Shown: positions 1 to 53,113 of the stretch, one piece after another | Layout: every line of letters starts with the position of its first letter | How positions within the stretch are numbered: position 1 is the stretch's first letter | Assembly (NCBI GenBank): GCA_000165345.1 | Contig: CM000435.1 | Span: 416,001 to 480,000 of the forward strand | DNA: 64,000 nt | Reading direction: 5' to 3' | The notes under the pieces: generated by a model | Databases searched by the model: none | The model's input: only the letters and a program-made list of their open reading frames with translations | What the model was told of the DNA's origin: nothing | Translations under genes and position numbers: made by a program

Positions 1-858
<858 letters not shown>

Positions 859-9898: not shown

Positions 9899-10169
9899 AA
9901 CTAAATTGTATTTCGTGAATTTTTTTTTGCTTCCACTTGCATCGTTTGCATGAATGCATGCACATGTTCCTTAAATTACAAAACGGGCGGGAAACTACGT
10001 CGAGTCGGAATTAGTAGAGTAGGGAAAAATCAAAAAAAAAAAATCCTGTGAGCAAATATTATTTAATTTTCTAAGGCTTAAAAAAAAAAATTAGAAAAGT
10101 AGTCAAAACCATTAAAGATAATTTTGTTTCTTTTTGACTTTAGGTTGTTGTTTGCTAGATTGGGGAAGG

Positions 10170-28089: not shown

Positions 28090-28238
28090 TAAAAATTTTC
28101 AAGCCTTGGCATTACTCAATTTTCAAACAACTTTGGCGCCAAGTTCACTGTCAAAATCTAGCATGCAAAGTCAAAACAAAAGCAGGATGAGGGGAACAAT
28201 TAGCTAGTTAATTAAAACGGGATTATAATGAAAAAAAA

Positions 28239-48817: not shown

Positions 48818-48935
48818 TACTGTGGGTACTTTTTTGTTTTTAGGTATCTTCAACATTGCAAAAATGTTCCGTAATAAATCGTTTTTGAAATTCTGTTTCT
48901 TATATATTTTATATTTTTTCACCTTTTATTTTTCG

Positions 48936-50828
48936 ATGGTTGTTACAATATCTTTAAGAAGTCCAAGCAACTCAGGAAAGAAATTGGACTTGGAAAGTTT
49001 AAAGGAAAGTCTTGTTAAGGGTGGTCAGGACCACATTTTAAATTTGTTGGAGTCTGGCGATTCTGATAATGTAAATAGACTAATTTCTCAGTTAATGACT
49101 TTGGAAACTTCGTGTGTGGGTGGTGGGTTACTTGGATATATTAACAGAGCTAAGAAGTTATTGAAAGACTCAAAGGACGGTGTTAATCCAAGAGAAGGGT
49201 GTTATCCTGAGGTTCCAGAGGTAGTTAACTTAGATGTTGGTACTGAAGACTTTAAAAAATATGAGGAGCACGGCTTTTCTGTCCTAAAAAATGTTGCCTT
49301 TGTTTTGGTAGCTGGCGGTTTGGGTGAAAGACTTGCATTTGAGGGAATAAAAATAGGAATCGAGCTGTCAATGGCTTCCAACATCACATTTTTCCAGTTA
49401 TACACAAACTATATCAGGGAGTATCAGAGAAGGTTGAAGGAGGCTTTCGGAGAAGATATTGTAATTCCTTTGCTTATCATGACATCTGATGATACTGACA
49501 GTATGACTAGAAAGTTTTTGGAAGAAAATGATCATTTTGGCTTGAGAGAGGACCAGGTGTATATAGTAAAACAACTCAAGGTCCCTGCTTTGATAGATTC
49601 TGATGCAAAGATTGCATTGGATCCTGAAGACAAATACTCAATCTTAACAAAGCCTCATGGCCACGGAGATATTCACACTTTGCTCCATGCTTCAGGACTT
49701 TTGAAGGATCTTTTTGAGAAAGGAGTAAGATTTTTGGTTTTCATCCAAGATACAAATGCTTTAGTTTTTAATTCAGTACTTCCAGTATTGGGAGTTACAT
49801 CAATGAATTCATTCGTGATGAATAGTTTGACAATTCCCCGTATTCCATGCGAGGCAGTTGGCGCTTTGTGTAAGCTCAGATATCCAGATGGAAAGAAAAT
49901 TACTATTAATACAGAATATAACCAGCTCACTCCTTTACTCAAGAGCTGCGGTTTAGGATCAGATTTTGCTGATGAAAAGACAGGATACTCTCCTTTCCCT
50001 GGAAATTCGAACGTCTTGTTCATTTCAATGGATTACTATATGAAGACCTTGGAAAAGACTGGGGGAGTTGTACCTGAATTTGTGAACCCTAAGTATTTGG
50101 ACTCAACTAAAACAGCATTCAAAAGCCCAACTCGTTTAGAATGTATGATGCAAGATATTCCACTCTTATTTGAGGCTGATTACAAGGTTGGATGCGTGCA
50201 AATGCAGAGATGGGCTACATTCTCTGCTTGCAAGAATAGCTTGGCCGAGGGAAGAGCAAAACATAGTGCAGGAGTCTCCATAGATACCGCCTCTATAACA
50301 GAAGGCGACTTCTATGCAGCTGCCTCACAATATTTGAGATTGGCATCAATTGAAAAGGGTGTAGTTTGTAGAATTGAGGAGAGTGGAAGGGATCCAGTCA
50401 CTGGAAAGGATGATAAGAACTCTCTAATCAAACACGAAATGATCGCCGGAATTCCAGTCAGAGTTGGAGCAATGGTTGTTTTGCACCCTTCATTCGCAAT
50501 TAAGTATTCTGATCTTCTCCAAAGGATTCAGGCTGGTCCTATTATTATTACAAGTAGATCCTATGTGCATTTAGAAGGAGATGTGGTGATCAGTGGAAAA
50601 TTCTTTGTAGACGGTTCAGTTAGAATTGTGGCAAAGAACGGCTCAAGGATTATTATTAAGAATCTCATTGTTAACAATAATGGAACCACTAGATATCATA
50701 TTTCTGAGCAGGATATGGGACATGCAACCAGCAATCAAAAAATCAGAGGATATGGAATTAGACACGAGCAAATAAGGGAAATTATCTCGGATAACGGAGA
50801 AGAAGTTATTATCGACGATCAAAACTGA
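48936..50828 (+). CDS. USP: UDP-sugar pyrophosphorylase (UTP:monosaccharide-1-phosphate uridylyltransferase, USP type).
   Basis: NVAFVLVAGGLGERLAFEGIKIGIELS (the USP form of the NTP-transferase G-loop), KPHGHGDIHTLLHASGLL, and a beta-helix C-terminus. The ORF track starts at 48822 with a hydrophobic junk-like leader (MGTFLFLGIFNIAK...); the third ATG (MVVTISLRSPSNSGKK, 48936) sits just upstream of the conserved N-terminal block. The canonical E2F box at 48805-48817 lies immediately 5'. Confidence 0.75.
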   Translation: MVVTISLRSPSNSGKKLDLESLKESLVKGGQDHILNLLESGDSDNVNRLISQLMTLETSCVGGGLLGYINRAKKLLKDSKDGVNPREGCYPEVPEVVNLDVGTEDFKKYEEHGFSVLKNVAFVLVAGGLGERLAFEGIKIGIELSMASNITFFQLYTNYIREYQRRLKEAFGEDIVIPLLIMTSDDTDSMTRKFLEENDHFGLREDQVYIVKQLKVPALIDSDAKIALDPEDKYSILTKPHGHGDIHTLLHASGLLKDLFEKGVRFLVFIQDTNALVFNSVLPVLGVTSMNSFVMNSLTIPRIPCEAVGALCKLRYPDGKKITINTEYNQLTPLLKSCGLGSDFADEKTGYSPFPGNSNVLFISMDYYMKTLEKTGGVVPEFVNPKYLDSTKTAFKSPTRLECMMQDIPLLFEADYKVGCVQMQRWATFSACKNSLAEGRAKHSAGVSIDTASITEGDFYAAASQYLRLASIEKGVVCRIEESGRDPVTGKDDKNSLIKHEMIAGIPVRVGAMVVLHPSFAIKYSDLLQRIQAGPIIITSRSYVHLEGDVVISGKFFVDGSVRIVAKNGSRIIIKNLIVNNNGTTRYHISEQDMGHATSNQKIRGYGIRHEQIREIISDNGEEVIIDDQN

Positions 50829-50961
50829 ATAAATTTAATCTCACGCATATTTTTAGTACTTTTTTTAAAATTATTATTAGTTTTGTTTAATTTTTAATGT
50901 AAATTAAGACATTTTTGCATGCAAAATTCCCCCCTCATAATATAATTTTTACCCTTCAAGT

Positions 50962-50982
50962 GCCCGCCCATTTTTGGCGGGC
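50962..50982. promoter_or_regulatory. Perfect inverted-repeat E2F-type GC box GCCCGCC-cattttt-GGCGGGC, about 100 bp upstream of the CBM20-CDPK ATG.
   Basis: 7-bp arms that are exact reverse complements, separated by a 7-nt T-rich spacer. It is the only GC-dense spot in an AT-rich intergenic region; TGCATGCA lies 40 bp upstream (50916-50923). Confidence 0.4.
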
Positions 50983-51082
50983 AAACACATTAATGCAGAT
51001 TTATCCATGGAAACGTATTTCTTAGGAAAAAAGTAAATTTGTCAGGAATAAAGTACAAGTCATGTAAAAAACCCAAAAAAGC

Positions 51083-53113
51083 ATGGTTTTGATATCATGG
51101 GAATGTGTGTGTGATCTGACACATCCTGGACAGTCTTTGTATGTGGTAGGGAGCCACCCAAGACTGGGAGCTTGGAAGATTACAACTGAGCAAGAGGAAA
51201 ATAAGCCTATTCGACTTATTACTGACAAACTTTCCTATCCAGTCTGGAGGACAAGCGAGCCTATTAGGATTCGAGGTGCATGTCTTTTAGAGTATAAGTT
51301 TATTATTAGTAAGGAAACTGAACCGTACGAGAATCTAGAGTGGGAGCCAATTCAAGGAAACCGATACTTACAAGTCGACGAGAATTTTCCAGAATATAAG
51401 TATATTATTCATTGTAGTTGGGGAAATATTTCTAAAAGCACGATAAGGTTTGAAGAATATTTCGGTAATGATGGCAAAGTTGATGATTACTCATATAGAG
51501 CAAAGCCTGGAGCAAGGTATATTTCACCGGAAAATGCAGAAATATATTCTGAGGAGGATGAAGAACCTAAAGACAGAGGTGCTTATGAAAGCTCTGTAAC
51601 ACCTCCGCTAATGTTGAGTAGGACAGGGTCCAGATTAAGACTTCTATTGGACAGATCCAGATTTATTTTGAGCACCAAAGGTGACATCAACCAATATTAT
51701 ACTTTGGAAAATACTATAGGAAGGGGTTCTTGGGGTGAGGTAAAAATAGCTGTCCAGAAAGGAACCAGAATTCGTAGGGCAGCAAAAAAGATTCCAAAGT
51801 ACTTTGTTGAAGATGTTGATCGTTTTAAACAGGAAATCGAAATTATGAAGTCTTTGGATCATCCAAACATAATTAGGCTATACGAAACTTTTGAAGATAA
51901 TACTGATATATATTTGGTTATGGAACTATGTACTGGAGGAGAGCTTTTTGAAAGAGTTGTACACAAGAGAGTTTTCAGAGAAAGCGATGCTGCAAGAATT
52001 ATGAAAGATGTTTTAAGCGCTGTAGCTTATTGCCATAAGTTAAATGTGGCTCATAGGGATTTGAAACCTGAGAATTTCCTTTTCTTGACAGATTCTCCAG
52101 ATTCTCCCTTAAAATTGATTGACTTTGGCTTGGCAGCTAGATTCAAGCCTGGAAAAATGATGAGGACAAAGGTTGGAACTCCATATTATGTGAGCCCGCA
52201 GGTTTTGGAAGGTCTTTATGGCCCAGAGTGTGATGAATGGTCAGCAGGAGTAATGATGTACGTTTTGCTTTGTGGCTACCCTCCTTTCAGTGCACCTACA
52301 GATTCTGAGGTAATGCTTAAGATCAGAGAAGGAACATTTACATTTCCAGAAAAAGACTGGCTTAATGTTTCTCCTCAGGCAGAATCTTTAATAAGGAGGC
52401 TGTTGACAAAGTCTCCAAAACAAAGAATTACTTCTTTGCAAGCATTAGAACATGAGTGGTTTGAGAAACAACTTTCTTCATCTCCAAGGAACTTATTGCT
52501 AGATAATGTAATCTCTAACTTTAGAAGGTTCCAGGGCCTTTCAAGATTAAAAAAGATTGCTTTAACATTAATAGCTCAAAACATTGATGAAAGAGATATC
52601 CTAGATTTACACGACACATTTATGGAATTGGATACAAGTAGAGATGGAACGCTGAGCAGAGCCGAGATCATTGAAGGAATTAATAGAACAGGTTGTAGTC
52701 CAACAATTGGGATCGATGCTCTTCTTGACGAAATTGATCCTGAAGGTACTGATACTATTTCTTATACAGACTTTATTGCAGCTTGCATTCAAGAGCGGCA
52801 AATGTCCCATGAAAGTGCATGCAAAGCGGCATTTAGAGTATTTGACATTGATGGAGATGGACAGATTAGTAATATAGAATTTCTCAAGGTCATGTCTCTT
52901 TCTAGTAAGGCTAAAAAATCAGACGATGAACTAGCTCAAGAACTGAGCGAATTTATGAAATCAGGAGATTTAGATAAGGATGGAACGATTAATTTCGATG
53001 AGTTCTGCCATGTGATGAGAAGAGTCCCATCCAAATTTCTCCTTGGGGAGGCTTCTGATGACACAATAAATATGATGAAAAGATGTTCCTCTAGAACTAA
53101 CATTAATTTATAG
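51083..53113 (+). CDS. Calcium-dependent protein kinase with an N-terminal CBM20 starch-binding module (TgCDPK2-type architecture): CBM20, then Ser/Thr kinase, then 4 EF-hands.
   Basis: N-terminus VLISWECVCDLTHPGQSLYVVGSHPRLGAWKITTEQEENKPIRLITD...YPVWRTSEPI...LLEYKFIISKETEPYENLEWEPIQGNRYLQV is the CBM20 pattern (GQ.L.V.G....LG.W ... EYKF ... WE.G.NR). Kinase: GRGSWGEVKIAVQK...HRDLKPENFLF...DFGLA...GTPYYVSPQVL. EF-hands: DTSRDGTLSRAEI, DPEGTDTISYTDF, DIDGDGQISNIEF, DLDKDGTINFDEF. Confidence 0.85.
   Translation: MVLISWECVCDLTHPGQSLYVVGSHPRLGAWKITTEQEENKPIRLITDKLSYPVWRTSEPIRIRGACLLEYKFIISKETEPYENLEWEPIQGNRYLQVDENFPEYKYIIHCSWGNISKSTIRFEEYFGNDGKVDDYSYRAKPGARYISPENAEIYSEEDEEPKDRGAYESSVTPPLMLSRTGSRLRLLLDRSRFILSTKGDINQYYTLENTIGRGSWGEVKIAVQKGTRIRRAAKKIPKYFVEDVDRFKQEIEIMKSLDHPNIIRLYETFEDNTDIYLVMELCTGGELFERVVHKRVFRESDAARIMKDVLSAVAYCHKLNVAHRDLKPENFLFLTDSPDSPLKLIDFGLAARFKPGKMMRTKVGTPYYVSPQVLEGLYGPECDEWSAGVMMYVLLCGYPPFSAPTDSEVMLKIREGTFTFPEKDWLNVSPQAESLIRRLLTKSPKQRITSLQALEHEWFEKQLSSSPRNLLLDNVISNFRRFQGLSRLKKIALTLIAQNIDERDILDLHDTFMELDTSRDGTLSRAEIIEGINRTGCSPTIGIDALLDEIDPEGTDTISYTDFIAACIQERQMSHESACKAAFRVFDIDGDGQISNIEFLKVMSLSSKAKKSDDELAQELSEFMKSGDLDKDGTINFDEFCHVMRRVPSKFLLGEASDDTINMMKRCSSRTNINL

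Follow-up and report, generated by a model that had tools for sequence, protein, structure and literature searches.

What is the role of the GC-rich palindrome that lies in front of the kinase gene CpCDPK2 (cgd7_1840) of Cryptosporidium parvum? The stretch of DNA that was analysed, referred to here as the window, is 64 kb long, and the initial annotation of its sequence interpreted the palindrome as paired, cooperatively acting E2F sites in the CDPK promoter. The question addressed below is whether the element is maintained as a protein-binding word in the DNA or as a stem-loop in the RNA. UGPase (cgd7_1830) and CpCDPK2 are separated in C. parvum by a spacer of 254 bp (50829-51082), which contains the palindrome; the plus strand is the sense strand for both flanking genes, and both are tagged 'Female specific' in supplementary file 3 of PMC11078545. 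The name CpCDPK2 for cgd7_1840 follows PMC3227725. The 676-residue CpCDPK2 protein is identical, letter for letter, in the C. parvum assemblies, its kinase domain corresponds to PDB entries 2QG5 and 3F3Z, and TgCDPK2 of Toxoplasma is its orthologue. The features of the locus, together with the paired alignment columns of the predicted helix, are collected in Table 1.

Table 1. Features of the UGPase-CDPK2 locus and paired columns of the predicted helix. Positions refer to the window, or to the columns of alignment A2 where so marked.
Feature	Position	Strand	Basis or remark
UGPase, UDPGP family (cgd7_1830)	48864-50828	+	ORF; gene call; Pfam PF01704
TGCATGCA palindrome, putative AP2_1-type ApiAP2 site	50916-50923	.	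fits 5'-[T/C]GCATGC[A/G]-3' (PMC3734150)
C6 run (50929-50934), G-box-like GAGGGGGG	50929-50936	-	between TGCATGCA and the hairpin
Left (5') stem arm TGCCCGCC	50961-50968	+	pairs with 50976-50983
Loop/spacer CATTTTT	50969-50975	+	variable between species
Right (3') stem arm GGCGGGCA	50976-50983	+	GGCGG invariant in 12/12 species
Conserved block TGCAGATTTATC	50994-51005	+	invariant TGCA and ATTTATC in 6 species
TCATGTAA with AUG-stop	51060-51067 (ATGTAA 51062-51067)	+	longest invariant run of the spacer
CpCDPK2 (cgd7_1840) CDS: CBM20, kinase, 4 EF hands	51083-53113	+	ORF; exact protein match; Pfam domains; orthologues
Core pairs CCGC/GCGG	A2 9-28, 10-27, 11-26, 12-25		no variation
Pair	A2 13-24		CG:7, UG:3
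Pair	A2 8-29		CG:7, AU:3
Pair	A2 7-30		GU:4, GC:2, CG:2, UA:1
Pair	A2 6-31		UA:4, AU:3

The palindrome is genuine. Reading the sequence bears out an exact GC-rich inverted repeat with a T-rich spacer, GCCCGCC-N7-GGCGGGC, at 50962-50982 (GCCCGCC at 50962-50968, CATTTTT at 50969-50975 and GGCGGGC at 50976-50982). One additional T-A pair lengthens the 7-bp arms to perfect 8-bp arms, TGCCCGCC and GGCGGGCA, across 50961-50983. Counted from the stop codon of UGPase, which is encoded on the same strand, the dyad lies at a distance of 134 nt. Its pattern is present once in the window, against 0.00 occurrences expected from 100 dinucleotide shuffles. A scan for inverted repeats whose arms measure 7 bp or more and contain 5 or more G/C each, with a spacer of 3-12 nt, identified the dyad as the sole close GC-rich inverted repeat of the window (simulated mean 0.5 hits), where it is counted twice through overlapping hits; for 6-mer arms composed entirely of G and C the simulated mean is 0.02. 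The dyad had also been described as the only GC-rich element of the intergenic spacer, which is correct as to its composition but not as to its being the sole one, since a run of six C residues occupies 50929-50934. The placement of TGCATGCA some 40 bp upstream is accurate, 38 nt separating it from the left arm, as is the mention of single GGCGGGAA(A) boxes elsewhere in the window, of which six are present.

C. parvum was compared with orthologous loci from 11 further Cryptosporidium genomes, namely C. tyzzeri, GCA_004936735.2, two species from Logan assemblies (the protein of one of which clusters with that of C. ubiquitum at 90% identity), C. canis, C. felis, C. xiaoi, C. ryanae, C. serpentis, C. 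muris and C. andersoni; C. hominis, C. meleagridis, C. bovis and C. ubiquitum proper are outside this 12-species comparison. The order UGPase > CDPK2 < SMC is kept in every species in which the upstream neighbour is visible; for C. serpentis, 1.5 kb upstream of CDPK2 was retrieved, and this stretch holds no gene. The UGPase-CDPK2 spacer measures 254 bp in C. parvum, about 705 bp in C. xiaoi and C. ryanae, and 2.7 kb in C. muris and C. andersoni. No ORF of at least 50 aa was found in the gap of C. muris or in the last 1.5 kb of that of C. serpentis. The gastric spacer is AT-rich, with 20-31% GC (loci L013 256-3000, L014 258-3000 and L012 1-1500), and the last 400 bp before CDPK2 exhibit high mutual similarity among the three gastric species. 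Two gene models have displaced starts: the CDPK2 model deposited for C. felis (618 aa) has its start 53 codons past the orthologous ATG (L015 2842) and therefore is without the start of the CBM20 domain (L015 2842-3000), and the gene call on Logan contig L008 starts 7 codons downstream (L008 1480-1500).

A dyad is present at the matching site, 85-110 nt upstream of the CDPK2 ATG, in 10 of the 12 species. The initial annotation had suggested examining orthologous promoters, and there the arms prove invariant in all seven intestinal-clade species, C. felis included, while the spacer between the arms varies. When C. parvum and its six closest relatives are aligned, only 35% of the columns of the intergenic spacer are invariant, and the alignment contains the invariant runs GCCCGCC (7) and GGCGGG (6), a pair of a kind that arises in permutations with a frequency of 0.001. 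Only ATTTATC (50999) and TCATGTAA (51060) are comparable to the arms as invariant runs of the intergenic spacer. The loop sequences among the species are CATTTTT, AAAAACT, AAAACTA, CAAATTT, CACATTC, TACTAAAA and TAAAATAATA, with a length of 7 nt in six species, 8 nt in C. felis and 10 nt in the gastric clade. The loop is seemingly inverted between lineages, CATTTTT in C. parvum and C. tyzzeri versus AAAAACT (L006 1388-1394) and AAAACTA (L008 1365-1371), a flip reminiscent of small stem-flanked inversions of other genomes.

The dyad of the gastric species (C. serpentis, C. muris and C. andersoni) is located 85 nt before the CDPK2 ATG and differs in sequence from the intestinal one. It reads TATACCGCT-N10-GGCGGTATA in C. 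serpentis, N10 being TAAAATAATA, and TACACCGCT-N10-GGCGGTGTA in C. muris and C. andersoni; within the gastric clade, C. serpentis and the other two species thus differ by one pair altered on both sides, U-A to C-G. GGCGGG is kept in the seven intestinal-clade species, and GGCGGT is found in C. xiaoi, C. ryanae and the three gastric species. The gastric half-sites are GGCGGT and AGCGGT, such that the hexamer is lost and the complementarity retained. In C. xiaoi and C. ryanae the GGCGG arm is present, 246 nt and 281 nt from the CDPK2 ATG, respectively, and its left partner has been lost; the plus strand alone allows an alternative stem, which is weak and rich in G.U (z = -1.9 and -0.8). The gastric and intestinal dyads, which are without alignable flanks, are considered homologous because they have their position, their gene context and the CCGC/GGCGG core in common, and the stem-loop would then be older than the split between gastric and intestinal Cryptosporidium.

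From an unaided MAFFT alignment of the ten dyads (A2), RNAalifold predicts an 8-bp helix, with the qualification that the segments around the dyads were chosen by us, which introduces an ascertainment bias. Three pairs of this 8-pair core helix have changed on both sides. Over an 11-pair helix, 80.9% of the cells are paired, compared with 70.7% after shuffling of the columns (the observed value was attained in 0 of 500 shuffles) and with 34-43% when the partners are slid out of register. The covariation score of the 11-pair helix is 0.305 versus 0.144 for the shuffled alignments, of which again 0 of 500 attain the observed score. A few outright mismatches occur in C. felis, in the species of locus L009 and in C. 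canis, at the two outermost core pairs. The number of independent compensatory events is small, with roughly three between the clades and one inside the gastric clade. The four core pairs, being invariant, are uninformative on structure and could reflect sequence-specific recognition of DNA.

The departures from Watson-Crick pairing carry a strand signal. Of the wobble-type departures, the 11-pair helix contains 10 G.U or U.G on the plus strand, with the 8-pair core accounting for 7, and not a single A.C. In nine of the ten species the hairpin of the sense strand is more stable than its counterpart, with summed minimum free energies of -159.1 versus -139.4 kcal/mol; the advantage of the plus strand amounts to ~ 4 kcal/mol in each of the gastric species, and the two strands of C. 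parvum fold equally well. The plus-strand hairpin of C. parvum has a folding energy of -16.3 kcal/mol and a z score of -2.7 relative to shuffled sequences, and the corresponding z scores are -2.8 for C. felis, -4.7 for C. serpentis and -6.3 for C. muris. The stem comprises 6-8 GC-rich base pairs in C. parvum and its relatives and 13 bp in the gastric species. In these alignments, then, selection is shown to maintain the pairing of the arms with an invariant CCGC/GCGG core, and it is likewise shown that neither the E2F-type word nor the sequence nor the length of the spacer between the arms is maintained. The invariance of the core and the GGCGG of C. xiaoi and C. ryanae leave room for a sequence-specific contact, which may be made with DNA or with RNA.

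The stem-loop is an element of a single locus and is absent from Rfam. Rfam 15 yielded no match at E <= 1 in window positions 50000-52000 and nothing at the gathering score in the C. muris and C. xiaoi loci. The ten hairpins were used to construct a covariance model (R1), which, when run against the window and the 11 other loci, recovered only the CDPK2-upstream copy per species, with no second copy in the 64 kb or the other loci and no match in C. xiaoi or C. ryanae; the finding of no second copy gives no support to a regulon or a repeated family. A metagenome scan with the pattern of the hairpin plus the downstream block revealed no additional Cryptosporidium species, and its 55 matches, which are without blastn similarity to the window, were taken as chance. 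A larger conserved RNA structure from the hairpin to the ATG was considered and rejected, as the only addition made by RNAalifold is a weak helix of A-U and G.U pairs that hardly covary.

Several other elements of the spacer are conserved as well. The status of TGCATGCA as an AP2 motif is supported by the match to the published motif and by a TGCATG core that precedes the hairpin in all 12 species. TGCATGYR is the binding motif of the AP2 factors cgd2_3490 and cgd1_3520 (PMC3734150, PMC11078545), and TGCATG(T/C)(G/A) is enriched in the promoters of macrogamont genes (PMC11078545). At least one copy that fits TGCATGYR is present in 10 species, the exceptions being L006 (TGCATGAA) and C. canis (TGCATGAC). 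TGCATG is separated from the right arm by 47-60 nt in the intestinal species and by 37 nt in the gastric species, where it is on the minus strand (TGCATGTA). The TGCATGCA octamer occurs 14 times in the window, versus 0.88 expected. Its sites include 3574, 5652, 5833, 9955, 13498, 14819/14823, 18008, 25204, 40449, 40480, 40830 and 52816, among them clusters within 400 bp (40449/40480/40830 and 5652/5833) and an overlapping pair (14819/14823). The C-rich run between TGCATGCA and the hairpin is kept in six of the seven intestinal-clade species; the G-box, 5'-G.GGGG-3', is bound by the AP2 factor cgd8_810 (PMC3734150).

Downstream of the hairpin, the intestinal clade shows almost no variation in the block TGCAGATTTATC, and C. 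xiaoi and C. ryanae contain it in the form ATGCAGATTACC, 12-13 nt past the GGCGG arm. The block might belong to the core promoter or mark the start site. The ATGTAA within TCATGTAA constitutes a mini-uORF in C. parvum, 21 nt before the CDPK2 ATG. ATGTAA precedes the ATG by 19-26 nt in 7 of 7 intestinal-clade species and by 9 nt in the three gastric species; C. xiaoi has ATGTGA and ATGTAG further upstream, and C. ryanae has none. According to a review (PMC12246861), uORFs have not been described in Cryptosporidium.

We consider the best explanation of the dyad to be a conserved sense-strand RNA stem-loop in the putative CDPK2 leader, downstream of an AP2-type TGCATG site, and we judge the chances of this interpretation to be about even. 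It has to be weighed against several others, foremost that of two inverted E2F/DP sites which, bound cooperatively or by two heterodimers, would drive or repress transcription of CDPK2. GGCGGG is present on the plus strand at 50976 and on the minus strand at 50963, is found 8 times in the window where 2.4 would be expected, and is the core of the C. parvum E2F-like motif 4 (PMC3734150). Together with GCATGC it is over-represented upstream of glycolysis and carbohydrate genes (PMC3734150), and E2F motifs predominate in the open chromatin of sporozoites (bioRxiv 10.1101/2025.01.17.633476). The invariance of both arms in the seven intestinal-clade species and the distance of ~ 100 nt to the ATG, like that of other E2F boxes in the window, are also consistent with such sites. 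Furthermore, the right arm combined with the T-run, TTTGGCGGGCAA, differs from TTTGGCGGGAAA at one position, and this candidate site may bind E2F/DP in C. parvum. However, that T-run belongs to the variable spacer and in other species is missing or adjoins the other arm. All six of the other GGCGGG boxes conform to GGCGGGAA, whereas both arms of the dyad read GGCGGGCA, without the AA; the regular expressions GGCGGGAA, SGCGSGAAA and TTTSSCGC match the six other boxes but not the dyad. The gastric GGCGGT and AGCGGT are not E2F-like, yet the dyad is retained there through compensatory changes. Nor is the spacing of the half-sites fixed, and a loop of 7, 8 or 10 nt is easily accommodated by a hairpin but awkward for a rigid dimer site. 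In addition, the G.U-type deviations are confined to the sense strand, and CDPK2 is female-enriched whereas E2F/DP is mainly expressed in asexual stages. Thus, from the original proposal of paired cooperative sites, the conservation and the E2F-like GGCGGG core stand, so that it is supported in part, but the missing AA flank, the loss of the hexamer in the gastric species, the variable spacing and the restriction of G.U pairs to the sense strand speak against it, and we regard it as unlikely. Elsewhere in the window, the GGCGGG boxes followed by AA and then by A or C are located at 9986, 13288 (minus strand), 36603, 45467, 57308 and 61838, and three palindromic TTGGCGCCAA-type E2F sites at 28132, 48809 and 62250, the one at ~ 48809 being just upstream of UGPase.

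The CCGCC/GGCGG half-sites might instead form a palindrome recognised in the DNA by a different protein, dimeric or paired, of the C2H2 GC-box, AP2 or Myb type or of a type not yet known. Base-specific contacts predict what is seen in the CCGC...GGCGG core, namely invariance without covariation in 10 species; GGCGG is retained in C. xiaoi and C. ryanae despite the loss of the left arm, and the element is positioned between the conserved AP2 site and the ATG. The variable half-site spacing argues against this possibility too, as do the outer stem positions, which change in complementary fashion and are neither fixed nor drifting independently. Moreover, the left half-site of the gastric species is AGCGG and not GGCGG, which is a mismatch for a DNA site but a U.G pair in RNA, and GCCCG, CGGGC and GGCGG are absent from the main text of the paper on AP2 binding motifs (PMC4117751). 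We therefore rate such a site as quite improbable. That the dyad lies 134 nt past the UGPase stop, on the same strand, between two female-enriched genes raises the further alternative of a signal for 3'-end formation, termination or processing of UGPase, or, if UGPase and CDPK2 form a dicistron, of a signal in its spacer; C. parvum is reported to have polycistronic transcripts whose internal spacers contain E2F-like motifs. In C. xiaoi and C. ryanae, however, the element is ~ 450 nt from the UGPase stop, and in C. muris and C. andersoni ~ 2.65 kb, while the gastric element stays near the CDPK2 ATG, and no conserved T-run or poly(A) signal adjoins the dyad. The hairpin is assigned to the 5' side of CDPK2 and not to the 3' end of UGPase because in C. 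muris and C. andersoni it is found 85 nt from the ATG despite a 2.7-kb gap to UGPase, and a UGPase or dicistron signal appears very improbable. A terminator of the bacterial type was ruled out, the organism being a eukaryote and the dyad having no conserved T-run. Equally remote is a palindrome without function that is maintained by processes acting on DNA, such as template switching and small loop inversions. The loop is seemingly flipped between lineages, and a single template-switching event can produce arms that match perfectly as well as changes that look compensatory, but template switching does not yield G.U pairs; the position relative to the ATG is kept across clades whose spacers are otherwise unalignable, and the arms are invariant against a background of 35%.

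The RNA stem-loop in the CDPK2 leader presupposes that transcription starts upstream of the dyad. In the mechanism that we propose, the AP2 site would be a promoter element and transcription would begin shortly downstream of it, which would place the stem-loop close to the 5' end of the CDPK2 mRNA leader, or directly at that end, where it would act as RNA. There it might bind a protein or impede the loading or scanning of the 43S complex, and so set the translation or the stability of the female-stage, macrogamont-enriched CDPK2 message. Repression at the level of translation has been reported for sexual differentiation (PMC11078545). In eukaryotic initiation, even a 5'-end hairpin of -14 to -18 kcal/mol can hinder 43S loading or bind protein. 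A role at the DNA level, as a protein-binding palindrome, could coexist with the role in RNA. More tentatively, and with considerable doubt on our part, the hairpin and the invariant ATGTAA may constitute a genus-wide post-transcriptional module that silences translation of the mRNA of CDPK2, an amylopectin-regulating kinase, until a later stage. If true, the module would have no described predecessor in Cryptosporidium, either as a structured cis-regulatory RNA or as a conserved uORF.

The regulation of Cryptosporidium genes is known almost solely from over-represented DNA words such as the E2F, AP2 and G-box motifs, and we know of no cis-acting RNA structures described in this genus. From C. 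parvum to C. muris, the present locus has retained the pairing and not the word. A match to the 'E2F-like' GGCGGG may therefore be something else, which calls for caution with motif-based maps of regulons. The locus also offers a compact handle on the post-transcriptional control of a female-stage kinase.

Among known systems, the E2F-like motifs of C. parvum (GGCGGG, 'motif 4', and 5'-[A/T][C/G]GCGC[G/C][A/T]-3'; Oberstaller et al. 2013, PMC3734150; PMC12246861) share the hexamer with both arms of the dyad. The dyad resembles them in its location ~ 100 nt upstream of an ATG, in the company of GCATGC and in front of a carbohydrate-metabolism gene; unlike them, it is without the AA flank, has lost the hexamer in the gastric species and conserves the complementarity of its arms. 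Paired inverted E2F sites occur in the adenovirus E2 early promoter and in the cellular DHFR and E2F1 promoters. The dyad is comparable in having two E2F-type cores that are inverted and close to one another, so that dyad E2F sites have a precedent. However, the adenovirus E2, DHFR and E2F1 sites consist of full TTTSGCGC words in a fixed geometry, whereas the flanks of the CDPK2 dyad misfit and its spacing varies between species. The ApiAP2 AP2_1 site is matched exactly at 50916-50923, and the gene downstream is female-enriched, like the set of targets of this motif (PMC11078545). This site is an element separate from the dyad, 38 nt upstream of it.

In Toxoplasma, CDPK2 controls the starch stores. 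A hairpin in the 5' UTR of the LDH1 mRNA of Toxoplasma gondii, attributed to Holmes, Itaas and Ananvoranich (2014), reportedly represses translation in bradyzoites. The LDH1 element has reportedly been demonstrated experimentally in the mRNA and found to be repressive, whereas for the CDPK2 stem-loop both properties would be predictions. Both are short stem-loops upstream of the start codon of a stage-regulated, carbohydrate-related apicomplexan gene, and by analogy the LDH1 hairpin would be the closest precedent within the phylum and a model for the proposed mode of action of the CDPK2 element.
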